Positions 2,661-14,621 of a stretch of 64,000 nt of DNA are shown piece by piece. Below the pieces are notes generated by a model. It was not told where the DNA came from. It saw nothing but the letters and a program-made list of their open reading frames with translations, and did no database searches. This DNA comes from an uncultured Planctomycetota bacterium (GTDB taxonomy: Bacteria; Planctomycetota; Planctomycetia; Pirellulales; Lacipirellulaceae): positions 384,001 through 448,000 of the forward strand of contig CAVRBU010000003.1 of the NCBI GenBank assembly GCA_963719315.1, written 5' to 3'. The position numbers were made by a program, and so were the translations under genes. Numbering within the stretch: position 1 is the stretch's first letter; the number at the start of each line of letters is the position of its first letter.

Positions 2661-4124
2661 ATGGGAAGTACCACTGACTGGGCACGATGTCGATCATGGT
2701 TACTCGCGATCGGCCTGCTAAGCATGTTGATCGCGACATACTGTGCGAACGCGGCGCAAGCACAAGAACAAACACCGGCGGCGGAGCCCGCGGCAGCCAC
2801 ACCCGCCGCGGCGGGACCTGCGGGACTGAATGAGTCGCTGGGCGCAACGTCTCACGCACTGGATACGGTCTGGGTCTTGGTGACGGCGTTTCTGGTGATG
2901 TGGATGCAGGCCGGTTTCGCGTTGGTGGAAACGGGTCTCACGCGCGCTAAAAACGCGGTAAACATCTGCATGAAGAATCTGCTGGACTTTTGCTTCGGCA
3001 CGATGACGTTCTGGATCGTCGGCTTCTCGATCATGTTCGGCGACGGCGGCAGCATGAATAAACTCTGGGGCGGGCTCAACGGAATGTTTTTGAACACCGC
3101 TGAGCCATTCAAATCGCTGGATTGGACGCACGTTCCGTTGGACGCCAAGTTCTTTTTTCAGCTTGTGTTTGCCGCGACGACGGCCACGATTGTTTCCGGC
3201 GCCATGGCCGAGCGGACCAAGTTCACTTCGTACATGCTTTACAGCGCGGTCGTTTCGGCTTGTATTTATCCCGTTTCCGGTCACTGGATTTGGGGCGGCG
3301 GCTGGTTGGCGGACAAGGGATTCTTCGATTTCGCAGGTTCGACCGTCGTGCATAGTTGCGGCGGCTGGCTGTCGCTGATCGGAGCGTTTGTGCTCGGCTC
3401 ACGGCTCGGCAAATTCGATTCGGCCGGCAAGCCACGGGCTATCCCGGGCCACAACCTCGTGTTCGTGACGCTGGGAGTGTTCGTCCTGTGGCTGGGGTGG
3501 TTCGGGTTTAACCCGGGCAGCACCATGTCCGCGGACGCCGGATTGATCGCCAAGATCACGGTGAACACCAACGCGGCGGCGGCGATCGCTTGCATCGCGG
3601 CCGTGTTCACCGCGCGCGCCATGTACGGTAAGTGGGAAGCAACCATGGCGCTCAACGGAGCGCTGGCCGGATTGGTCGCCATCACCTGTCCGTGCGCGTG
3701 GGTTTCGACGTCGTCGTCGGTGATCATCGGCTTGGTGGCCGGTATCTTGGTCGTGCTCTCCGTGGTCGGCATTGAGAAGTTTCTCAAGATCGATGATCCG
3801 GTGGGTGCGATTTCCGTGCACGGCGTCTGCGGCGCCTGGGGCACGTTATCGCTAGGCCTGTTCTCGATTGCCAATGGCGATGCGGCGCCGAAGCCCGGTT
3901 TGTTCATGCCGGGTGGCAGCTCCGAACAGTTGGTTTCCCAGGCCATCGGCGTCGCCGCCGTGTTCGGCTGGGCGATTGTCACGGGAGCGGTGTTGTTCTA
4001 TATCCTCAAAGCCACGGTCGGCTTGCGCGTTTCTCCGGAAGAGGAGCGCGAAGGGCTCGACTACGGCGAGCACGGCAACGAGGCCTATCATGGCTTCGTG
4101 TTCGAGGCCACGACCGAGGGTTGA
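2661..4124 (+). CDS. amtB: Ammonium transporter Amt (copy 1)
   Basis: MQAGFALVETG, DFAGSTVVH, WLGWFGFNPGS, DDPVGAISVHG (twin His intact); GGAGA before ATG 2661. Confidence 0.96.
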   Translation: MGSTTDWARCRSWLLAIGLLSMLIATYCANAAQAQEQTPAAEPAAATPAAAGPAGLNESLGATSHALDTVWVLVTAFLVMWMQAGFALVETGLTRAKNAVNICMKNLLDFCFGTMTFWIVGFSIMFGDGGSMNKLWGGLNGMFLNTAEPFKSLDWTHVPLDAKFFFQLVFAATTATIVSGAMAERTKFTSYMLYSAVVSACIYPVSGHWIWGGGWLADKGFFDFAGSTVVHSCGGWLSLIGAFVLGSRLGKFDSAGKPRAIPGHNLVFVTLGVFVLWLGWFGFNPGSTMSADAGLIAKITVNTNAAAAIACIAAVFTARAMYGKWEATMALNGALAGLVAITCPCAWVSTSSSVIIGLVAGILVVLSVVGIEKFLKIDDPVGAISVHGVCGAWGTLSLGLFSIANGDAAPKPGLFMPGGSSEQLVSQAIGVAAVFGWAIVTGAVLFYILKATVGLRVSPEEEREGLDYGEHGNEAYHGFVFEATTEG

Positions 4125-6818: not shown

Positions 6819-8039
6819 GTGAGGGTGAATTGGCACCTTCCCAACGCGCTGCGACGCATCTCGGCCGCGGTCATAGTGCTCGGCTTGCTAATCGGCACCG
6901 CGGCGGCCGGACCGTTCACCGACCTGGTCTTGTTCGGCGACAGCCTCTCGGACGTCGGTAACATTTCAGACGCGACGCCGATTCTTTTTGGTTTGGTCCC
7001 CAAAACGCCCGGTCCCTCCTATTGGAACGGACGCTTTTCGAACGGACCCGTGTATGCTGAATCCTTAACAACCGGGCTGGGCCTGCCGACACTGGATAAT
7101 AGTAGTGCTGGCGGAAAGGATTTCGCCTACGGCGGCGCGCAAACCACCGGCACTGGGTTTCCCGATAACATCGTCGTCCGCGATGTGGATGACCAAGTGG
7201 GCGACTTTTTAGCCGGTCCCGCGGCCGATCCGAATGCCCTGTTCGTGGTATTTGCCGGCGCCAACGATTTGATCGGCGGCCAGACGAACATGAGCGTGCC
7301 CGTCAATAGTTTGCAGGGCAGCATCAACCGGCTCATCATGGACGGCGCGCGGCAGTTCCTGGTCTTCAATCTTCCGCCGCTGGGTTACACACCGCGGTAC
7401 AACGCCAACCAATCGACGCGCGACATATACAACGCGCGTTCGCAACAATACAACGCGGCACTCGCCACGATGCTCGGCGGCGTGCAAGCCGGCAATCCGG
7501 CCGTCACCGTATTTCAATTCGATGTGGCCGCGATGTTCAACCAAGCGCTGGCCGATCCAGCGGCGTTCGGACTGACGAACGTGACCGACTCCGCCGCTCC
7601 TGGCCTGCAACCCGGCGCGAAGTCGTATGACACGAGGCTCATCGTGCCCAATCCGAACCAGTATATGTTCTGGGACGACCTGCACCCGACCGCCGCGGTC
7701 CACGCGATCCTGGCCCAGCGCGCGCTCGATCTATTCCGGCTGCCCGGCGACTTCAATCACGACAACGTGGTGGACGCGGCCGACTACATCGTGTGGCGCA
7801 ACGGCGTCGGCACGGCGTACATCCCGTATGACTACGACGTGTGGCGAGACCACTTCGGCCAAACCGCCGGTAGCGGCGCAGCATCCACCCTCCCCCTTCC
7901 CCCTTCCGCCTTGGATTCCGCCGTGCCGGAGCCAGCGACGCTGCTCTTGCTCGGCTTGGCCCTGTCGGCCCTTGCGCTTGGCAATCGCCACTGCTCTCCA
8001 CCAAGAGCCACCGCCGCGTTGCAGCTCATACGGCATTAA
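6819..8039 (+). CDS. SGNH/GDSL hydrolase with dockerin-like module and PEP-CTERM
   Basis: FGDSLSD, YGGA, GAND, WDDLHPT; GDFNHDNVVDAADYIVWR; VPEPATLLLLGL. Confidence 0.9.
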   Translation: MRVNWHLPNALRRISAAVIVLGLLIGTAAAGPFTDLVLFGDSLSDVGNISDATPILFGLVPKTPGPSYWNGRFSNGPVYAESLTTGLGLPTLDNSSAGGKDFAYGGAQTTGTGFPDNIVVRDVDDQVGDFLAGPAADPNALFVVFAGANDLIGGQTNMSVPVNSLQGSINRLIMDGARQFLVFNLPPLGYTPRYNANQSTRDIYNARSQQYNAALATMLGGVQAGNPAVTVFQFDVAAMFNQALADPAAFGLTNVTDSAAPGLQPGAKSYDTRLIVPNPNQYMFWDDLHPTAAVHAILAQRALDLFRLPGDFNHDNVVDAADYIVWRNGVGTAYIPYDYDVWRDHFGQTAGSGAASTLPLPPSALDSAVPEPATLLLLGLALSALALGNRHCSPPRATAALQLIRH

Positions 8040-8419
8040 CACGCTAATTTCCGCGTACAGTCCTTCCCTCTTCTTGCCCTGCGGTGAGTTTTGCGCGAGG
8101 GCTTTGTGCAATAGGATTCGCAAGTCGTTGGGCGGCAAGGGATTGCGATTTGCGCACACGCGGAAATTTTTTTTCCGCGTGCAAAACCCCTCCTTATTGC
8201 ACGCCGCTCGGGGCGGCGGACCGCTGGAAATCCAGTGGTTTGGGCATCCGTTCGACGTGCAATAGTAGGCGAGTTTGCTCACTAAAAAGCCGGTTCTTGT
8301 CACGTTCTTGGCACGTTTTCGACGCGCATCCCATGGTGCATGCTGCAAATCAAAGCGCAGCATGGGCGTCTGGGCGGCCACATGGCCGTCAGCCGTCAGC
8401 CGACAGCTAATCATTCAGA

Positions 8420-8468
8420 TTTTCAAGGAGCGAACGCCGTCGCAGTGCGGCGTGATGAGACTATAGCA
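8420..8468 (-). promoter_or_regulatory. Extended -10 promoter, hairpin and boxA-like motif (minus strand)
   Basis: Minus strand: TGcTATAGT (8468-8460), ACGCCG..CGGCGT hairpin (8434-8453), GCTCCTTGAAAA (8431-8420). Confidence 0.4.
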
Positions 8469-8545
8469 TTTTCGTGGGTCCCGATCCACAATTATTTTTG
8501 GCCGCGCGGAGAAGACGTGCGGCGGTCGTTAGCGGTGTTTTTTGT

Positions 8546-8622
8546 GACCACGGATAGCGTGGATGGCGCGGATCAGGTTGCGAGACGGAATCTTATCCGT
8601 GCGAGCGGTGTAATCCGAGGTT
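8546..8622. repeat. Degenerate 9-mer (CACGGAT-type) inverted repeat
   Basis: ACCACGGATAGCGTGGATGGCGCGGAT ... ATCCGTG...TAATCCGAGGT. Confidence 0.55.
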
Positions 8623-8708
8623 GACCAGGTGCTCGCATCTGACGAACGTTGGGGCGAACGCGGCCGGGCGTAGCCGTCGCAACCACGGCACGCGCCAGAA
8701 TAAACGAA

Positions 8709-8799
8709 CGGGGTCAGGATTTGATTAAATCGTTCCGACCCGATTTCCGGATTTCACTTTAATTCACCTTCGGTCAGCGATTTGACTCCCGTCCCCTTT
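8709..8799. repeat. Cassette-delimiting palindromes (GGGTCAG/CTGACCC and TGACTCCCGTCCCCTTT types)
   Basis: CGGGGTCAGGAT..GTTCCGACCCG; GATTTGACTCCCGTCC (8779-8794) is identical to 11975-11990. Confidence 0.65.
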
Positions 8800-8945
8800 A
8801 ATTAAAATCTTATGGAAGCGGTCAAACATTTGTGGTTCCACCTAATACGGTAATACGGTATCCGGGATTTTGGGGAACCATCAAGTATCCACTTGGACAA
8901 CGCATGTACATAGGCCCGGGACTTTTCCCGGAGTAATACGCCACG

Positions 8946-9263
8946 ATGCGCTATGCGCGGCATAATTGTATGATCCAGACGCTCGGAATCCTGATGTTTG
9001 CCATCGCGGCGTTCTTTGCTGGGACAAACTTCTATTTTAGCTTCATTGGTCCATGTATTAGTCGGTGGTTTGGCTGGAAGCTGCGCCGCGAATCTGTGAC
9101 TCCTTTCTTGGGAAACTTATTTCTGATTGCAGCCTTAGCGCTGCTCAAATGGTCAGTATTTATTTGGCTAATTGCGATTGTTCTCTGCGCGATAGATACG
9201 GGTGGTATCTTTTGGTTTTGCGCAGTTATGTTCTGGCGAGCGATTATTCAGAGGAAGTCGTAG
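8946..9263 (+). CDS. Small membrane protein (immunity-like, unassigned)
   Basis: 105 aa, about 3 hydrophobic segments, AT-rich. Confidence 0.65.
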   Translation: MRYARHNCMIQTLGILMFAIAAFFAGTNFYFSFIGPCISRWFGWKLRRESVTPFLGNLFLIAALALLKWSVFIWLIAIVLCAIDTGGIFWFCAVMFWRAIIQRKS

Positions 9264-9280
9264 CCCGCTGAGGTAAAAAG

Positions 9281-9589
9281 GTGTTGCCGGAAGGTTATGT
9301 ATTGGAATTTGCTCGTTGGATTCTCGGTGGGCTTTGCTTGGTAATCTTTAGCTTAATCGCTCTGGGGAACTGTGCGGTCGCGTGGAATTGGTTCGTTCAC
9401 CACAAACGAGGTTCGATGTTTCCTGTCTTCGGCGGTCTGTTAGGGGCAATCGGTGTTCTGCTACTTCCAATTGAGAATAGTTCGCAGTGGTGGTGGCTTC
9501 CACCTCTTTTGGATTTGGGATGCGTTCCAATTGTTATTATCTGGTTGGTTGCCTTTCTTGGCCGTTATTTTAGGTATCTGAAGTCGTGA
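9281..9589 (+). CDS. Small membrane protein (immunity-like, unassigned)
   Basis: 102 aa, about 3 hydrophobic segments, GAGG RBS; layout similar to the preceding ORF. Confidence 0.65.
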   Translation: MLPEGYVLEFARWILGGLCLVIFSLIALGNCAVAWNWFVHHKRGSMFPVFGGLLGAIGVLLLPIENSSQWWWLPPLLDLGCVPIVIIWLVAFLGRYFRYLKS

Positions 9590-9598
9590 GTCGCAGAG

Positions 9599-9877
9599 AT
9601 GAAATTTGCAGTTGAATCGAATCAATTCCAACACGCATGGAGCAATCGTATGGTCAGCATCAACCGTGATTGGTTCAATGAAAGATTCGCGTTTAAAGGC
9701 GACGTAGCGGACCTGCAATCCAACCCCGTTCGCCATTACGATCCAACGCTCGGCCGCTGGTTAAGTGAAGACCCGATCGGCTTCAACGCCGATAGTGCGA
9801 ACGTCTGTAGCTACGTTGCACCGCGTCAGACACCTACAGGTCAGAAAAGTGGTCAGAACTATTATCGTCATAAATAG
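9599..9877 (+). CDS. Mini RHS-core-like ORF (copy 1)
   Basis: RHYDPTLGRWLSEDPIGFNADSANVCSYV matches the RHS repeat-associated core motif. Confidence 0.65.
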   Translation: MKFAVESNQFQHAWSNRMVSINRDWFNERFAFKGDVADLQSNPVRHYDPTLGRWLSEDPIGFNADSANVCSYVAPRQTPTGQKSGQNYYRHK

Positions 9878-9891
9878 TTCTGACCCCTTTT
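9851..9891. repeat. Cassette-delimiting palindrome
   Basis: GGTCAGAACTATT-N9-AATAGTTCTGACC (13-bp perfect), then CCTTTT. Confidence 0.8.
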
Positions 9892-9899
9892 CTAACTCC

Positions 9900-10199
9900 A
9901 TGAAGCAACGAATAAAGAACATATTGCTGTCCGGGCTAATTGGCATCTCAGTAACGACGTTCGGTATTATGGTAGCCTATATTTCAGGAGGAAGTTCCAT
10001 CGGTCGCTTATTGTATTGGCAAGGCTATTTGTTGCAGAGTTTCGTGCCAGCTCCTAATCTCGGTCCACCGACCGACCCACACTTTGAAGCAACACCTATT
10101 CACATGTTTGCATTCTTTTTGGGAATTCCACTTGGCATCTTGATTTACTCGATACTATCGTATGCAGTGATATCAATGGCGCAAAGAAAGATGAACTAG
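9900..10199 (+). CDS. Small membrane protein
   Basis: MKQRIKNILLSGLIG...; 2 hydrophobic segments; starts just after the palindrome. Confidence 0.65.
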   Translation: MKQRIKNILLSGLIGISVTTFGIMVAYISGGSSIGRLLYWQGYLLQSFVPAPNLGPPTDPHFEATPIHMFAFFLGIPLGILIYSILSYAVISMAQRKMN

Positions 10200-10274
10200 A
10201 GTGGACGTGTCAAATCCTGGGGCTACCATCTCGATTCTTCTAAAACGGAAACGGAAAACGAAACGGACAACGGG

Positions 10275-11237
10275 TCAGAACGATTTTTTGTCGAAAAACA
10301 GTTCTGCCCTGCTCAGTAGAAAACCTAGGTGTTGTCTGAGAATCGAGATGTTGTGAGTGAGTGTTTTGAGGAGCAGGAGTCGGCAGCGGCGCCAGTGGGT
10401 GCGGGCGTTGACGACTTCTCCCGAGAGACGTTTGATCATCGAGTAGACGGTTTCCACCTGCCAACGTTGTCCATAACGACTTTCGTGCAAATGACGTTTC
10501 ATCTGCTTTCGATAGCGGCCCACGGGTTCCCCGGCCGGCGGTCGGCCGTGCTCGGCGGGGATCAGGGACTGAATCCCCAGTTCGTCGCGGGCCAACACGT
10601 GGTTGGCTTCGCTGTCGAAGCCGGCGTCCGCCGCGACCGCCTTCACTCCGGTGCGAGCCTGCGCTTCGACGACGAGCGGGCGGAAATCGCCGAAGTCGGG
10701 CCGCGGTCCCTGGCTAGCCCGGGCCGCCAGGCAGAAATGACTCGTCGTGTCGCAGACCACGCCCAGCTTGGGGTAGCGGCGATAGGAGACGGCGCACGTT
10801 CGTCCGTGTTTTCCCACCTTTTTTCGACGCCAGGCATAGTAGCGACTGGTGTGCCGCGCTTCGAAGCCGCTGGTGTCGATGGCTGCCAATCGCACGGAGC
10901 GGCGGAGCAGCTTGGCCTTCCGTGCCCGCTGGACCGTGGCCGTGATCAGCCGTTGAAACGACTTCTTCACCAACAACCGATCGGCCGACTTTTGCAGCGT
11001 CGTGAAGTGGGGCACCTTTTCCAGGCCGATCGCTTCGCACAGCGAATCGCTGTCCGCCAACAGGCCAACGGTGCCCCGATAGGTCAGGTTGTAAAAATCC
11101 TTGAGCACCAGACAGGCAAACAGTTGATGCTGCGTGAAGACCCGTGGGCTGAACCGATGCGAGTACCGCGGCAGCGAAGCCTGGGCCACGGCCAGTGCCT
11201 CGACCAACACGCGCTTCGGACTCTTGCTCGTCTTCAT
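10275..11237 (-). CDS. DDE transposase
   Basis: FTQHQL, VPHFTTL, AIDTSG, ADAGFDS, RWQVETVYSMIKR; ORF reads through its own TIR. Confidence 0.92.
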   Translation of the reverse strand: MKTSKSPKRVLVEALAVAQASLPRYSHRFSPRVFTQHQLFACLVLKDFYNLTYRGTVGLLADSDSLCEAIGLEKVPHFTTLQKSADRLLVKKSFQRLITATVQRARKAKLLRRSVRLAAIDTSGFEARHTSRYYAWRRKKVGKHGRTCAVSYRRYPKLGVVCDTTSHFCLAARASQGPRPDFGDFRPLVVEAQARTGVKAVAADAGFDSEANHVLARDELGIQSLIPAEHGRPPAGEPVGRYRKQMKRHLHESRYGQRWQVETVYSMIKRLSGEVVNARTHWRRCRLLLLKTLTHNISILRQHLGFLLSRAELFFDKKSF

Positions 11238-11302
11238 CCACCGTCATACGAACCAACACACACCGATGTTTAGCTAGCATTCAGACGTTTTCTACTGAGC
11301 AG
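10309..11302 (-). mobile_element. Complete IS (IS5/IS4-like DDE), 994 bp
   Basis: 16-bp perfect TIRs CTGCTCAGTAGAAAAC (10309-10324 and 11287-11302); 7-bp TSD TTCTGCC (10302-10308 and 11303-11309). Confidence 0.92.
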
Positions 11303-11429
11303 TTCTGCCCCCTTTCTGACCCTAACATGCACTGCGACACCAGTTTTGGATGTTCCATTTACATATTGGTATATTGGCCCTTGGTTCCATGCAGATTAAT
11401 TCTCCACGCCGCTAGCGGCTTACCTACCG

Positions 11430-11726
11430 ATGTTGTTCGCACGGATTGACCCTCGTTATTCGACATATTTGCGCATGAATTTTGCGCTAATGTGTTTGAT
11501 GCTGTTGATTGTCGCGTTATTAGACGCCGAAGAAGGCGATCAGTTATTCCTTCTTGTTGGCTTGCTTGGAATTAGCTTCGTCTATTTTGCTGTCGCGAGC
11601 AGATTGGTTCGCCGTGAGAACGTGGAAGTACCACGGGCCACGCTTGCGATCTTGAAGTGGTCATTTTCAGCAATGTTGTCTTTAGAAATCGGAATATATT
11701 TTGTCATTTTAATTTTGCGCAATTGA
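11430..11726 (+). CDS. Small membrane protein
   Basis: 98 aa, about 3 hydrophobic segments, AT-rich. Confidence 0.6.
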   Translation: MLFARIDPRYSTYLRMNFALMCLMLLIVALLDAEEGDQLFLLVGLLGISFVYFAVASRLVRRENVEVPRATLAILKWSFSAMLSLEIGIYFVILILRN

Positions 11727-11737
11727 GGGGCTTGCGT

Positions 11738-11950
11738 GTGATTCGCCATCCTCAAGCAAAGCCGACCCCATTCCAATACGCATGGAGCAATCGTATGGTC
11801 AGCATCAACCGTGAGTTGTTCAGCGACGACTTCAAAGGCGAAGCGACGGACCTGCAATCCAATCCCACCCGCTGGTACGATCCAACGCTCGGCCGCTGGT
11901 TGATTGAAGACCCTGTTGGCTTCAGCGCCGACAATGCAAAGATTAAGTAA
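11738..11950 (+). CDS. Mini RHS-core-like ORF (copy 2)
   Basis: FQYAWSNRMVSINR...RWYDPTLGRWLIEDPVGF; paralog of 9599-9877; GAGGGG before GTG 11738. Confidence 0.6.
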   Translation: MIRHPQAKPTPFQYAWSNRMVSINRELFSDDFKGEATDLQSNPTRWYDPTLGRWLIEDPVGFSADNAKIK

Positions 11951-11990
11951 AGGGGACGGGAGTCATTGTTACATGATTTGACTCCCGTCC
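11949..11990. repeat. Cassette-delimiting palindrome interrupted by an IS end
   Basis: GGACGGGAGTCA-N13-TGACTCCCGTCC (12-bp perfect). Confidence 0.8.
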
Positions 11991-12460
11991 GGCTCTGTAG
12001 AAAACATGCCTAGCTAGCTAAACATCCGTGCACCACAACTGCGTACAGCAGTTGTGGCGGTAACCAGTTAATCTCCGAAGGCGGTGGTGTTGGCCGCGTT
12101 GGCGACGGCGCGGCGGGCGTTGCCGGAGTATGCGCACCGCTATAGTCCCAGGAAGTTCACGCAGCATCAGTTGTTCGCCTGCCTGGTGCTGAAGAACTTT
12201 TTGCGGACCGACTACTGCGGCCTGGCGGCCCACCTGGAAGATCATCCGTCGCTGCTCGCCCTGTTGGAACTGAAGCAGGTTCCCCACTTCACCACGTTTC
12301 AGAAAGCAGCGCATCGCTTACTGCTCACAGCACCCGCGCGACAACTTCTGGAGTCCACCGTTCGCCTCCACCTGGGCCGGCGGAGACGGGTGAAGCGGGC
12401 GGCGATCGATTCGACGGGCCTCGAATGCAGTTGTGCCAGCGGCTACTTCGTCCGCCGCCC
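11990..12460 (+). mobile_element. Truncated related IS (left end plus transposase pseudogene)
   Basis: End CGGCTCTGTAGAAAAC..GCTAGCTAAACATC resembles the first IS; VAVTS*SPK (TAA 12069-12071), FTQHQL, AIDSTG; breaks off at about 12460. Confidence 0.85.
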
Positions 12461-12595
12461 AACGGATCGGGCACCGCGGCTGGCCTGCTCAGCAGCGCTA
12501 TACCCGAACCGGCGGCGTGGCTCATCCTGCTCACGGGGCTTGTGGCGATGCTCGTTGGTCGCCGCGGTGGTACGCCAGTTTGCCGTGACGAGTGA
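12461..12595 (+). pseudogene. Orphan PEP-CTERM tail
   Basis: Manual translation NGSGTAAGLLSSAIPEPAAWLILLTGLVAMLVGRRGG...*; no gene body upstream. Confidence 0.8.
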
Positions 12596-12744
12596 TGTCT
12601 GCTGTTCTCGCAGGCAGGAATCCTCTCGCAGAGCGAGTGGATTACACTCATCTTGGCCAACTACCGTCGCCGCTAATCGTGTGCTCGATTCACGGTTTTC
12701 TGGTATCATAAGGTTGGAGGCCGAGGCAGTCGCGGCGGCACTAC

Positions 12745-12870
12745 TGCTTTGTCACAGCTTGCTTTTGAGATTAGCCGCGGGGCGCTAGCCCCCGGTTGGA
12801 GCGGCACATACCGGGGGCTAGCGCCCTGCGGCTGATGCGCCCAACCCCAATTTTTAGCTGTGACAAAGCA
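12745..12870. mobile_element. MITE-like element with internal palindrome
   Basis: 15-bp perfect TIR TGCTTTGTCACAGCT; flanking CTAC direct repeat; inner inverted repeat 12770-12836. Confidence 0.7.
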
Positions 12871-12921: not shown

Positions 12922-14621
12922 ATGAAGCAGTGGCCGACATATCTCGTTAGCGCGGCCATTCTGCTGCTGATGGGCCTGAAGTCCGCGCTGGCCATTGACG
13001 GCGGCACGCTGCGCGTGAATCCGCGCAACGGCTGGCGGGCGTTCGAGGTCATTTCGGTCGGCGACAATCCGGCTGGAGATGGCTTCACCTGGGCAATGCC
13101 CGGCGTGTTCGACGGCGTTGGCGCCTGGTTGCCGGATGCCGCGACCTTGCGATTGGAGATCAATCACGAAGTCTCCGACGGCACGGTGAGCGAGGTGAAT
13201 CTCAATCTGGCCAACTTCCAAACCGCGATTCGCAATGTCATCGGCGGCGGTTCCACCGGCGGCGCGACGTTCGTCGAATCGGCCCGACAGGCGTATGGCC
13301 GTTGGAGCAACGACGGCGGTACAAACTGGATTACGACCGTCAACGTCTCCAATACGAGCTTTAGCAAGTATTGCTCCGGCCAGTCGTACCGGCCCGACAC
13401 GTTTGGCGCGGGCGCGGATTCGTGGACAACATCTACATCACGGGCGAAGAGTTCACCACGACCAACCGCTTGTTCGCCATCGACCTTGCGAACCGCGACT
13501 TTTATCGGCTCAGCGGCGTCGCCGGCAGCGCGAGCGGAGGAATCGGCGGCATGCCCTTCGATTCTTTTGAAAACGCGGCGCTGTTGGATACGGGCGAGAC
13601 CAATCATGTGGCGCTGCTGCTCTCGCCGGACGGCGGCTCGCAAATCATGCAGCTCTATATCGGCGAGAAGGGCAAGGACACTGCCGGGAACGCTTCGGGC
13701 AGCTTCCTGGCCCGCAACGGATTGGCCTACGGCAGTTACTACTATTTGAACGATACGCTGCCCGCGAACGGCACATCGAGCGACGGGTTTTTCGACACGA
13801 CGACCGCGGGCGGCTTGTATTCCTATAAGTTGGAGGACGTCGATACCAATCCGAACAATCCGACGCAGGTCGCGCTGGGAGTTCAGGAGACGGGGTTGTT
13901 CACATTCGATTTCAATCTCGACTTCAGCGGGGGAAGCTTTAACGCCGCGGCGTCCGGTTTCTCGATCACTAAGATTCAGAATCACAACAACGATACCGAT
14001 GGATTGTTCGGCGACGCCGACAACGTCGATTGGACCGCGGCCACGACGCTGAATGGCGTGAGCTACCCGAACGGTCTGATTTTCGTCAATGAAGACAGCG
14101 GCACTTCCAACGGCGAGACGTGGATGATGTCGCCCAACGGCAGCGGGTTGACGAAGATCGCCGATACGGCGCCGACCGATGCGGCCACGACGGAAACATC
14201 CGGCATCCTCGATATCTCCACGCTCGTGGGCTTCAAACCCGGCAGCATTCTGGTGACCAGCAATCAGGGGACGGCGTCTTCGCTCAGCGTGCTGATCAAC
14301 CCCTATGCGGCGCTGCGGGGCGATTTCAACGGCGACGGCATCGTGGACGGCGCCGACTACGTGGCGTGGCGCAAAGATCTCGGAACGACATACATGCAAG
14401 ATGATTTCGACATCTGGCGGGAACAATTCAGTCTAACATCCGGCAGCGCGGCGGGGACGATCGTCGGCTCAGCGAATTACGCCGTGCCCGAGCCAGCGAT
14501 CACCAGCCTGTTAGCTGCGGCCGCGATGGTGGCTATGAGCGCCAGGAGAAATACAACATCGGGCCCCGGCGGTCCTTTTTTGGCGAACCGGGCTCATGCT
14601 TGGCTGGCATGGCAAGCCTAA
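12922..14621 (+). CDS. Secreted PEP-CTERM protein, possibly PhoX/DUF839-like phosphatase (frameshift at about 13412)
   Basis: Signal peptide; FSKYCSG...GRGFVDNIYITGEE joined across a 1-nt deletion; FENA, DNVD, IFVNED; GDFNGDG module; VPEP. Confidence 0.6.

Follow-up and report, generated by a model that had tools for sequence, protein, structure and literature searches.

A low-GC islet of Rhs fragments, small membrane-protein genes and REP/REPIN-type hairpins in a member of the Lacipirellulaceae

Gene content and setting of the islet

The window is a 64,000-nucleotide stretch of contig CAVRBU010000003.1 (positions 384,001 to 448,000 of the forward strand; hereafter C3) from the genome of an uncultured planctomycete (GCA_963719315.1), which is 90.7% complete. 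Between 8.7 and 12.0 kb of the window lies a low-GC series of four co-oriented small open reading frames (ORFs), as the initial annotation had described, with a GC content of 0.43-0.50 over 8700-10350 and 11250-11850 versus 0.585 for the genome. The features of this islet and its immediate flanks are as follows.

8417-8755, + strand: dispersed repeat of 335 nt, ending in a degenerate type-1 hairpin (8712-8742)
8779-8799, + strand: type-2 solo right arm, GATTTGACTCCCGTCCCCTTT, inverted relative to the left arm at 11952-11968
8802-8935, + strand: "tip", 44 terminal codons of a C-terminal Rhs toxin domain, by homology to an Rhs protein of genome G089
8946-9263, + strand: TM1, 105 aa, three predicted transmembrane (TM) helices
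9281-9589, + strand: TM2, 102 aa, three predicted TM helices
9599-9877, + strand: miniRHS1, Rhs core fragment (TIGR03696 model positions 13-64 of 76) without a toxin domain
9840-9896: type-1 REPIN-like hairpin with 24-nt arms
9900-10199, + strand: TM3, 99 aa, two predicted TM helices
10272-10309: left part of a type-1 hairpin split by IS-A; 10301-10309 is the left copy of the 9-bp duplication GTTCTGCCC
10310-11301, - strand: IS-A, IS5-family-like, 992 bp, with 15-nt terminal inverted repeats TGCTCAGTAGAAAAC
11302-11323: right side of the split type-1 hairpin; 11302-11310 is the right duplication copy and 11311-11323 the rest of the right arm (CCTTTCTGACCC)
11430-11726, + strand: TM4, 98 aa, three predicted TM helices
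11738-11950, + strand: miniRHS2, shorter Rhs core fragment (model positions 16-55)
11952-11990: type-2 REPIN-like hairpin (GGGGACGGGAGTCA, 13-nt loop, TGACTCCCGTCC)
11991-12460, + strand: IS-B remnant, the end GGCTCTGTAGAAAAC and the first ~135 transposase codons
12497-12595, + strand: 3' remnant of a PEP-CTERM protein gene

The two ORFs first annotated as mini-RHS both match TIGR03696 (cut-off 32.5 bits), miniRHS1 above the cut-off at 36.4 bits and miniRHS2 below it at 27.5 bits, though as its best match. Hairpin 9840-9896 encodes the last 13 codons of miniRHS1, and the stop codon of miniRHS2 sits just 5' of hairpin 11952-11990. Three truncated Rhs cores exist in the genome, ending at model positions 55-64 of 76; the third mini-RHS copy, on contig C13, is frameshifted, which indicates decay. 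No toxin domain follows either core of the islet, where the tip is the sole toxin piece. The genome yielded no full-length rhs gene, and RHS_repeat (PF05593) has no match anywhere in the 90.7%-complete assembly, contig C3 included, which agrees with the earlier remark that a full RHS gene is missing. The other Rhs places of the genome are orphan modules with toxin domains (one colicin-E5-like) and small downstream genes. A type-1 hairpin is present at all three Rhs-bearing loci.

The tip lacks a start codon and begins directly 3' of the type-2 arm. It aligns, at 50% identity over 38 aa, with the very C-terminal end of a complete Rhs protein of 1068 aa in G089 (L080:3954-7157), as expected if it is the toxin remnant that it had been taken for. 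In G089, a TM2 homologue lies 4 nt downstream of this Rhs toxin gene, the position of an immunity gene. Thus, for TM2 at least, it does not hold that homologues of the membrane-protein genes never occur downstream of Rhs toxins. The tip match and the place of the TM2 homologue in G089 support the reading of the locus as an Rhs toxin/immunity remnant, and they suggest that TM2 is probably the cognate immunity protein of the lost toxin.

All four TM genes, first annotated as membrane genes, have two to three predicted helices. The TM1 family is rare (three homologues, 55-65% identity), and the sole TM1 homologue with context, at L025, has no Rhs neighbour. TM3 has one homologue (55% identity) and TM4 matches three representative clusters (34-42% identity); neither was found in any of 400 sampled genomes of the order. 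An immunity role for TM1, TM3 and TM4 may be supposed by inference only.

In orphan Rhs arrays, displaced C-terminal tips with their immunity genes lie downstream of rhs genes. Such toxin/immunity arrays occur, for example, in Salmonella (PMC3967940). The islet resembles them in having core fragments followed by small genes, a toxin tail followed by an immunity gene, and low-GC, co-oriented modules. Unlike them, it lies in a genome without a full-length rhs gene, its cores stop short of the DPxGL end and lack a toxin, and REP-type hairpins and IS elements are found at its module boundaries.

The islet belongs to ~4.7 kb of lineage-specific DNA (about 8040-12795) that is missing between matching flanking genes in two genomes of the same genus, G016 and G012. 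The spacing of the flanking genes is ~320-340 bp in these two and 1.56 kb in G015; the PEP-CTERM remnant is the sole intergenic piece that matches the corresponding stretch of G015. The 335-nt repeat occurs in seven copies in the genome (88-97% identity, one partial), precedes low-GC genes at several of them, and has as its first ~90 nt a motif that is spread more widely.

An empty site in relatives could also be read as the absence of one composite mobile element, the whole 3.2-kb islet bounded by inverted type-2 arms at 8783-8805 and 11943-11965, which form a 23-nt repeat with 96% complementarity. We regard this as highly improbable, because the lineage-specific stretch exceeds the arm interval, extending leftward over the 335-nt repeat and rightward over the IS-B remnant. 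Moreover, the arms are arranged as in two adjacent hairpins (right; left plus right) and not in the left arm-gene-right arm order of RAYT loci, and the genome has no second islet copy, with TM1-TM4 and the tip each occurring once.

Hairpins and their RAYT genes

Three of the palindromic stretches were folded and compared with 200 shuffled sequences. Hairpin 9840-9896 (-16.8 kcal/mol, z -8.4) and hairpin 11952-11990 (-13.7 kcal/mol, z -5.0) were matched by none of the 200 shuffles, and they correspond to palindromes first placed at 9851-9891 and 11949-11990. Near-identical copies of the former lie at C13:2535-2591 and C2:1471235-1471281. A third palindrome, annotated as split, is indeed split (10272-10309 and 11311-11323); the cause, an IS-A copy inside it, had been missed. 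The proposed single palindrome at 8709-8799 did not survive the fold test (8709-8805 folded as a whole: z -0.14, with 88 of 200 shuffles folding as well), and it is instead the degenerate type-1 hairpin that ends the 335-nt repeat, followed by the solo type-2 right arm.

Counting arms with at most one mismatch in 14 nt, the genome contains 32 (19 of type 1 and 13 of type 2). Five of these fall within the 3.3 kb of the islet, or 0.06% of the genome, which is more clustering than expected by chance. In other genomes of the genus, one to five complete hairpins occur per genome, and among 23 other genomes, 7 have exact type-1 arms and 4 have exact type-2 arms, with varied loops. Most copies, here and in the relatives, lie among ordinary genes, as REPs do.

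Two genes for HUH tyrosine transposases of the RAYT type are located elsewhere in the genome, one with type-1 arms (C2:1311235-1311933) and one with type-2 arms (C6:246161-246850). Both match PF01797, both look intact, and the HUH and Tyr motifs are visible in their sequences; against NF047646 (cut-off 80 bits), the C2 gene scores above the cut-off (88 bits) and the C6 gene below it (61.9 bits). The C6 gene has inverted type-2 arms 51 nt before its ATG and 19 nt after its stop codon. The C2 gene has one type-1 arm upstream; the other arm, interrupted by an IS-A copy, overlaps the gene's stop codon. Eleven further RAYT loci with inverted arms were found in relatives, namely five of type 2 with both arms (L059, L060, L061, L063 and L064), three of type 1 (L075, L077 and L040) and three of a third type; at L062 only the upstream arm is present, and the L065 locus runs into the end of its contig. 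Each RAYT clade of the genus has its own cognate arms, at equal distances. The search proposed with the initial annotation, for the same palindromes around a RAYT gene, was therefore positive for both types. On these sequence grounds, the palindromes are REP/REPIN-type (TIRtron-type) repeats of two families with putative cognate RAYT genes elsewhere in the genome.

Sections of PMC3733652 describe tyrosine-transposase genes that lie between TIRs with GGGGWSAS in common, the TIRs forming moderately abundant families, including those of Rhodopirellula baltica, and REP/REPIN-RAYT systems are treated in parts of PMC3116915 and PMC3337134. As in REP/REPIN-RAYT (TIRtron/TIRYT) systems, inverted hairpin-doublet arms surround a single-copy HUH tyrosine transposase gene, the islet hairpins are extragenic and near gene 3' ends, and each clade of the transposase goes with a repeat of its own. 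The type-1 arm of the islet (GGGGTCAG) fits GGGGWSAS, whereas the type-2 arm (GGGGACGG) departs from it at one position. Unlike in those systems, copies are very few (19 and 13 arms) and strongly clustered in low-GC islets, and, unlike classical REPs, the hairpins carry no GTAG tag.

It might be argued that the hairpins are intrinsic bidirectional terminators of small acquired genes, alike through duplication of modules and not through mobility. They follow stop codons at 0-70 nt, have G/C-rich stem bases with an A-run before and a T-run after, and the miniRHS-plus-hairpin modules are paralogous (80-85% identity). However, a simple consensus terminator scan did not flag them, the same arms stand inverted around RAYT genes in 13 loci of 13 genomes, and arms are exact across species whose genes are just 72-78% identical, while the loops vary. 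Terminator and REP roles are not exclusive, and we consider the terminator-only explanation improbable.

Insertion sequences at the hairpins

IS-A is present in the genome as 19 complete copies and one solo end. Its inverted repeats are perfect (15/16-nt), its DDE transposase matches PF01609 (E 1.3e-12), and its score against NF033579 (134.3 bits) is just below the cut-off of 140. The islet copy is flanked by the 9-bp duplication, and such duplications are perfect in 13 of the 19 complete copies. An A-run/G-run arm lies beside one end in 18 of the 19 (12 by a strict pattern); IS-A accepts varied stem sequences, provided the A-run/G-run base is present. The IS-B remnant, which had escaped the first reading, is inserted exactly at the right-arm end of hairpin 11952-11990 and is truncated on its right side; its transposase piece is 50% identical to the IS-A transposase. 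Thus, the hairpins are a preferred insertion target of two related IS5-like elements.

Examples of REP-targeting IS elements are known from the IS3 and IS110 families. Insertion of IS elements into REPs is reported in excerpts of PMC1525189, and part of PMC12288879 presents ISPpu9 as a REP-targeting IS. IS-A is like these in residing repeatedly inside one class of palindromic repeats, and unlike them in being an IS5-family-like DDE element that makes a 9-bp duplication and inserts in the arm.

Probable decay of the islet and possible movement of its units

We consider it rather likely that the islet derives by decay from an orphan array of Rhs toxin/immunity modules within lineage-specific DNA, and that its REP/REPIN-type hairpins are rearrangement hot spots targeted by IS elements. 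For the order of events, and for the part that hairpins or IS elements may have had in the deletions, we infer the following. The toxin-coding parts would have been lost, leaving one toxin tail, two truncated cores and four small membrane-protein genes. The hairpins, placed just 3' of stop codons as is usual for REPs, may have served as terminators too; one would have been split by IS-A, and another adjoined by IS-B. Hairpins and IS elements would then mark the junctions at which toxin sequences were excised, as hot spots of rearrangement in a decaying islet and not as sites of a dedicated gene-capture machine. Counted against decay is that the two families are tiny for REPs, yet place five arms in 3.3 kb; passive colonisation does not obviously predict such clustering.

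Taken as a whole, the initial observations were partly confirmed and their interpretation was partly supported. What was not borne out is hairpin-mediated capture of immunity genes into an integron-like array. The locus has neither an integrase nor an integron-like platform, one mini-RHS is frameshifted, and most hairpins lie among ordinary genes. The sole population-level breakpoint seen at a palindrome is the presence or absence of an IS and not of a cassette: one soil-metagenome contig bridges 10298 to 11300 without IS-A.

A related idea is that trans-acting RAYTs excise units of one or more genes with a hairpin and insert them at other hairpins through single-stranded intermediates, much as IS200/IS605 transposases mobilise DNA lying between sub-terminal hairpins. 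Integron-like orphan immunity arrays beside Rhs loci would be the outcome. The presence of cognate RAYT genes that look intact is consistent with this idea, as are hairpins at every unit boundary, ORF junctions that coincide with hairpin ends (the miniRHS1 tail and the tip start), and tandem duplications of 8-12 nt flanking hairpins at several copies. In G002, a SUKH immunity gene and two more genes are delimited by four type-2 hairpins (hairpin/SUKH gene/hairpin/gene/collapsed hairpin/gene/hairpin), and G004 has a hairpin, a 140-aa low-GC gene and an arm. Moreover, of 55 RAYT places in the genus, 4 are within ~2 kb of an Rhs core place (54 in all) against a rough expectation of ~0.15; the genomes compared are kin and not independent samples. 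These four cases come from other genomes and two RAYT clades, and their contexts are non-homologous, with only the RAYT gene and the Rhs core in common.

Nonetheless, no cassette was found in two contexts, and no excision or circle junction was found; a metagenome joint of 11970 to 8785 has unrelated flanks and is thus another hairpin copy. Ordinary genes flank most hairpins here and in relatives. In portions of bioRxiv 10.1101/2024.07.17.603846, RAYTs are seen as domesticated, moving REPINs only, and slowly. Our literature search found no paper linking RAYT/REPIN with immunity or Rhs. Because RAYT genes lie near Rhs cores in four other genomes and hairpins bracket a SUKH gene in a fifth, we keep RAYT-driven shuffling at a low but appreciable probability.

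Resemblance to integrons extends to co-oriented short cassettes between imperfect palindromes, which here, unlike in integrons, belong to RAYT-associated families. The genome gave no IntI (TIGR02249) match above the cut-off, and no attI/Pc platform could be recognised at the islet. Of the 15 tyrosine recombinase places (PF00589) in the genome, none is on contig C3, so that the earlier statement that no integrase is present holds for the contig. Orphan immunity gene arrays associated with a recombinase in Bacteroidales (rAID-1) are described in part of bioRxiv 10.1101/471110. Unlike rAID-1, the islet has no XerD-like recombinase at its head or on the contig, its repeats are RAYT-type hairpins, and the array is short (four genes) and visibly decayed.

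The locus is mostly built of known parts; what is new is the recurring pairing of hairpins with toxin/immunity genes. An active link between RAYT/REPIN and immunity cassettes fits the clustering of arms, the hairpins at Rhs loci, the proximity of RAYT and Rhs genes and the G002 array better than pure decay does. There is a low but appreciable chance that RAYTs and hairpins, more than domesticated passengers, move or rearrange units of an immunity gene and a hairpin, assembling and editing orphan immunity arrays near Rhs loci in this genus; the 335-nt repeat might serve these arrays as a head (promoter platform). If this holds, the genus would have an HUH-enzyme equivalent to both integrons and the Bacteroidales arrays of immunity genes that go with a recombinase.

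Layout and lineage specificity of the islet

At ~8.7-12.0 kb of the window lies an islet with a GC content of 0.43-0.50, except for a 1-kb insert at 0.6-0.7, in a source genome of 5.93 Mb (20 contigs, GC 0.585). The initial annotation described an AT-rich, co-oriented array of TM genes and mini-RHS ORFs delimited by palindromes. The low GC, the plus strand throughout, the TM and Rhs-core matches, the hairpins at 9840-9896 and 11952-11990, and a third hairpin in two parts are borne out; the palindrome placed at 8709-8799 is not one structure (z -0.14), and two IS elements, IS-A and IS-B, had been overlooked. The window is C3:384001-448000 of the source genome (G000); below, unprefixed positions refer to it, C-numbers to contigs of that genome, other G-numbers to related genomes, and L-numbers to extracted loci.

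Features of the islet
8417-8755: 335-nt dispersed repeat, with a degenerate type-1 hairpin at its end
8779-8799: solo type-2 right arm, 3' of the 335-nt repeat
8802-8935, plus strand: tip, a start-less ORF tail of 44 codons
8946-9263, plus strand: TM1, small ORF (TM1-TM4 each with 2-3 predicted membrane helices)
9281-9589, plus strand: TM2, small ORF
9599-9877, plus strand: miniRHS1, TIGR03696 (Rhs-associated core) at 36.4 bits against a cut-off of 32.5
9840-9896: type-1 hairpin, 24-nt arms, DNA fold -16.8 kcal/mol, z -8.4
9900-10199, plus strand: TM3, small ORF
10272-10309 and 11311-11323: third hairpin, in two parts, interrupted by the 992-bp IS-A
10310-11301: IS-A, 992 bp, perfect terminal inverted repeats, 9-bp duplication GTTCTGCCC
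11430-11726, plus strand: TM4, small ORF
11738-11950, plus strand: miniRHS2, TIGR03696 at 27.5 bits, under the cut-off of 32.5
11952-11990: type-2 hairpin, 12-bp stem, DNA fold -13.7 kcal/mol, z -5.0

The islet reads tip, TM1, TM2, core fragment, hairpin, TM3, hairpin (with IS-A), TM4, core fragment, and hairpin (with IS-B). The tip begins immediately 3' of the type-2 arm, the final 13 codons of miniRHS1 are hairpin sequence, and a 3' remnant of a PEP-CTERM gene comes after the truncated IS-B. TM1-TM4 and the tip occur once each in the genome. TM1-TM4, the tip and the mini-RHS ORFs belong to no significant Pfam family, and Rfam and tRNA scans of 7.0-13.5 kb gave nothing relevant.

Homologous blocks in the source genome end at 7877 and resume at 12997, and homologues of the flanking genes lie ~320-340 bp apart in two relatives of the same genus (G016 and G012) and 1.56 kb apart in a third (G015). 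The islet's unique DNA is covered by none among the matches listed for 40 relatives. Four soil-metagenome runs contain only 20-27% of sampled words, with a few short low-depth contigs on the islet's unique parts, so that uncovered parts are no evidence of cassette gain or loss. One contig of run X2 (depth 2.1) bridges 10298 to 11300, the site without IS-A. An X2 contig over 11323-11631 is shorter by 11 nt at 11367, 5' of TM4; this variant in the population comes from a single contig of low depth. A joint from 11970 to 8785 was considered as a circle junction and rejected, since both contig flanks are unrelated sequence; it is another type-2 hairpin.

Rhs remnants and the position of TM2

Among 400 sampled genomes of the order, the tip (44 aa) matched a single one, G089, where it aligns with the extreme C-terminus of a 1068-aa protein (50% identity over 38 aa, pairwise E 5e-10) that carries YD repeats and, at residues 759-840, an Rhs core. 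Only 4 nt 3' of this protein lies a 98-aa gene homologous to TM2 (34% identity over 85 aa, E 1e-12), and the motif LLDLGCVP is common to both. Since the tip matches this Rhs C-terminus and a TM2 homologue follows it there, the short ORF is a toxin remnant, as first proposed, and TM2 occupies, by homology, a predicted cognate-immunity position. That TM homologues never lie downstream of RHS toxins, the case against its own reading considered in the initial annotation, does not hold for TM2. For TM1, TM3 and TM4 we infer an immunity role. The TM genes form genuine though sparsely represented families: TM1 has three homologues (55-65% identity), TM2 one in a large protein collection, TM3 one (55%), and TM4 three representative clusters (34-42%). 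Context is available for a single TM1 homologue (L025, on a metagenome contig of 66% GC), whose neighbours are a response regulator and unrelated genes; no Rhs gene is close by. TM3 and TM4 had no match among the 400 genomes, a TM2 alignment found no relatives in metagenomes, a TM1 alignment found none in the genome collection, and the ESM Atlas clusters retrieved with TM2 were all unnamed, their recognition being under the stated level.

Rhs core matches occur at six places in the genome, three of them complete with C-terminal domains and three truncated. The complete cores are all in orphan-type modules, two at the start of C13, where they adjoin an integrase and tRNA-Leu and one has a colicin-E5-like domain, and the third at C2:1467 kb. 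Of the truncated cores, two lie in the window and one, a frameshifted paralogue, at C13:1017-1219. Those in the window reach only to model positions 55-64 (of 76) and are without a toxin domain; they are 80-90% identical in DNA, and their dN/dS of 0.41 over 56 codons decides neither for a functional gene nor for a relic. RHS_repeat had no match in the genome (90.7% complete) and contig C3 holds no tyrosine recombinase, in agreement with the initial statement that neither an integrase nor a full RHS gene is present in the window. The Rhs orphan array at the end of C13 (G000:C13:1-7215, L020), beside the integrase and tRNA-Leu, comprises two core-plus-toxin modules, small downstream genes, an inter-module type-1 hairpin, an IS-B-type end remnant, and the frameshifted third mini-RHS.

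In the window, hairpins or IS elements occupy the places where toxin domains would be expected. The toxin-less order, these occupied positions, and the frameshift in one of three mini-RHS copies together point to a decaying Rhs toxin/immunity islet. The locus is thus probably an Rhs immunity islet in decay, carrying hairpins of the REPIN type and IS elements that target them. An orphan Rhs array would have lost its toxin-coding parts and kept the immunity genes, and REP-type hairpins, with the IS elements they attract, would have served as rearrangement junctions; the order of these events is a reconstruction.

Hairpin families, RAYT genes and IS elements

The two hairpin families have the sequences GGGGTCAGAAC(T/G)ATT ... 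AAT(A/C)GTTCTGACCCC (type 1) and GGGGACGGGAGTCA ... TGACTCCCGTCCCC (type 2), each preceded by an A-run and followed by a T-run. Genome-wide, arms with at most one mismatch number 19 for type 1 and 13 for type 2, and the 3.3 kb of the islet hold five. A type-1 hairpin is present at all three Rhs-bearing loci of the genome, and near-identical 55-nt copies lie at 9840-9896, C13:2535-2591 and C2:1471235-1471281. By density of the AAAGGGG/CCCCTTT heptamer the islet is in the genome's top four windows, with only four matches, a signal that is weak alone. Complete hairpins with exact arms, their loops differing and often palindromic, were found in 7 (type 1) and 4 (type 2) of 23 other genomes of the genus, at 1-5 copies per genome, and the species sharing them have common genes that are only ~72-78% identical. 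Stretches of 8-12 nt 3' of hairpins are tandemly duplicated (CCCCTTTGTGCG three times, GTCCCCTTTAATTTATTC twice, and CCCCTTATATTC-type; e.g. C6:170998-171040, C2:2147480-2147513, L047:4800-4850 and L025:8440-8495), and CCCCTTAT is repeated four times 3' of the TM1 homologue in the distant 66%-GC contig. Such short duplications may be footprints or slippage.

The 335-nt repeat has sharp ends and seven copies (88-97% identity, one partial), the others being at C2:2140438, C2:1472105(-), C2:778057, C2:1677022, C6:45357 and C1:146295(-). The whole repeat is in none of 23 other genomes. A decayed RAYT gene and a known RNA were both weighed as candidate identities for it; Rfam gave no match. Several copies have low-GC small genes downstream, plus another type-1 hairpin or IS-A copy. 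A ~90-nt conserved motif (…TTTTCAAGGAGCAAACGCCGTCGCAATGCAGCGTG…GACTGTAGCA…CCACAATTATTTTTGGCC) spans 8417-8510 and recurs ~14 more times in the genome (e.g. C3:38460, C2:254075 and C4:826950), at six places in G015 and at two in G008. It usually has GCTAACAGCTAA-type repeats 5' and differing sequences 3', and resembles a promoter or leader module common to these sites.

The initial annotation suggested a search for a RAYT (HUH tyrosine transposase) gene flanked by the same palindromes. There are 11 Y1-transposase places in the genome, and two of these are RAYT-like genes (~230 aa) that have the hairpin arms known from the window on either side. Against the NCBIfam RAYT model (cut-off 80), the C2 protein scored 88 bits and the C6 protein 61.9 bits, under the cut-off. 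Across the genus, each RAYT clade has its own arms at like distances.

RAYT genes and clades with their arms
C6:246161-246850: type-2 RAYT gene, AAAGGGGACGGGAGTCATTT 51 nt 5' of the ATG and AAATGACTCCCGTCGCCTTT 19 nt 3' of the stop
C2:1311235-1311933: type-1 RAYT gene, AAAAGGGTCAGAACGATTT upstream; the second arm extends over the stop codon and has a copy of IS-A inserted in it
Type-2 clade: both arms at L059, L060, L061, L063 and L064; upstream arm only at L062; L065 cut by the contig end
Type-1 clade: both arms at L075, L077 and L040
Third clade: AAAAGGTGTCAGGAACC arms at L070, L072 and L073
Fourth clade: L074

A further RAYT-like gene at C4:426278 has 24-nt inverted repeats at -52 and +19. 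Two far commoner palindromic families, CACGGACTTCAGTCCGT…ACGGACTGAAGTCCGTG and GCGCTAGCCCCCGGTT…AACCGGGGGCTAGCGC (e.g. C1:70389 and C1:54435), with dozens of copies each genome-wide, are presumably classical REPs of other RAYTs.

Of the genus's 55 RAYT places, four have one of the 54 Rhs core places within ~2 kb (tables compared by eye), against a rough expectation of ~0.15, the related genomes not being independent samples. These contexts belong to two RAYT clades and have only the RAYT gene and Rhs core in common.

RAYT genes near Rhs cores
G004:C16: RAYT 88960-89571, Rhs core 90962-91225
G007:C16: RAYT 68561-69133, Rhs core 66982-67197
G002:C27: RAYT 1346-1945, Rhs core 2904-3134
G015:C4: RAYT 2647121-2647720, Rhs core 2649522-2649752

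In G002:C170, four type-2 hairpins (one collapsed) delimit three genes beside an IS-B remnant, namely an SMI1/KNR4 (SUKH-1) immunity-family gene (E 1.8e-20), a 189-aa low-GC gene, and TauE; in G004:C3 a low-GC gene of 140 aa has a hairpin on one side and an arm on the other. At L114:7482-7889 (G007:C16), a 136-aa low-GC DUF6188 gene lies between the downstream arm of a RAYT gene and an arm of another type, directly 3' of an Rhs module. Arm clustering, the hairpins at Rhs loci, RAYT-Rhs proximity, and the bracketed SUKH and low-GC genes do not fit a purely passive picture. Nonetheless, RAYT-driven shuffling of immunity cassettes appears unlikely: the majority of hairpin copies are flanked by ordinary genes (kinases, dehydrogenases, hydrolases and the like), and neither a cassette at two places nor an excision junction was observed. 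Of the original interpretation, the Rhs/immunity origin (from the tip and TM2) and the RAYT link (from the flanking arms) are supported, and hairpin-mediated capture remains hypothetical.

IS-A, part of the decayed islet favored here, has 19 complete copies and one solo end in the genome. One flank consists of an A-run, a (C/G)G-run, and then 6-9 nt to the IS end in 18 of the 19 copies (12 with a strict AAA-GGG pattern), while the stems at these sites vary (GGTCAGAAC, GGACGGGAG, GGACGCGAC, GGTCCGACC, GGTGGGCG and others). A perfect 9-bp duplication flanks 13 copies, and the six without it suggest later recombination between copies. The related IS-B end begins at 11991, directly 3' of the last hairpin, and is truncated after ~135 codons; IS-B ends adjoin hairpin arms both in the window and in G002. 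These IS elements seek the hairpins, and REPs are known targets of other IS families (PMC1525189, PMC12288879). The IS-A transposase frame (window 10275-11237, minus strand, and other copies) has no stop of its own before the IS end and crosses the terminal repeat into the flanking hairpin, so that its last ~10 residues vary by copy; tblastn alignments stop at residues 309-315 of 320.

Relation to known systems

The genome has no IntI match above the cut-off, and C3 is devoid of tyrosine recombinases. The locus is neither an integron nor a rAID-1 array, although it resembles the latter (bioRxiv 10.1101/471110): orphan immunity-type genes are arrayed at low GC, and the sequences between them are repeated. 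Each of its parts belongs to a known kind, be it Rhs orphan array, RAYT/REPIN (TIRtron) repeat or REP-seeking IS element. TIRtrons, as described in PMC3733652, are tyrosine-transposase genes flanked by inverted repeats sharing GGGGWSAS; their repeat families are moderately abundant, with "a plethora" of them in Rhodopirellula baltica. The RAYT clades with their own flanking arms match that account; the type-1 arm GGGGTCAG fits the consensus, whereas the type-2 arm GGGGACGG is off at one position.

Searches of the literature on RAYT/REPIN with immunity, Rhs or Planctomycetes found no link of RAYT repeats to toxin/immunity cassettes, and the only paper naming both topics treats them separately. 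As far as these searches reached, what is apparently new is the repeated physical association of hairpins and RAYTs with toxin/immunity modules, that is, low-copy RAYT hairpins at module boundaries, RAYT genes beside Rhs modules in several species, and a hairpin-bracketed SUKH gene. The function of RAYTs is still debated. If the link is not mechanistic, the islet is a clean example of REP hairpins and hairpin-seeking IS elements eroding a toxin locus while immunity genes are retained. If it is mechanistic, RAYTs would acquire a definite function, in turning over genes for interbacterial defence, and integron-like immunity arrays could arise by a second route in addition to that of tyrosine recombinases.
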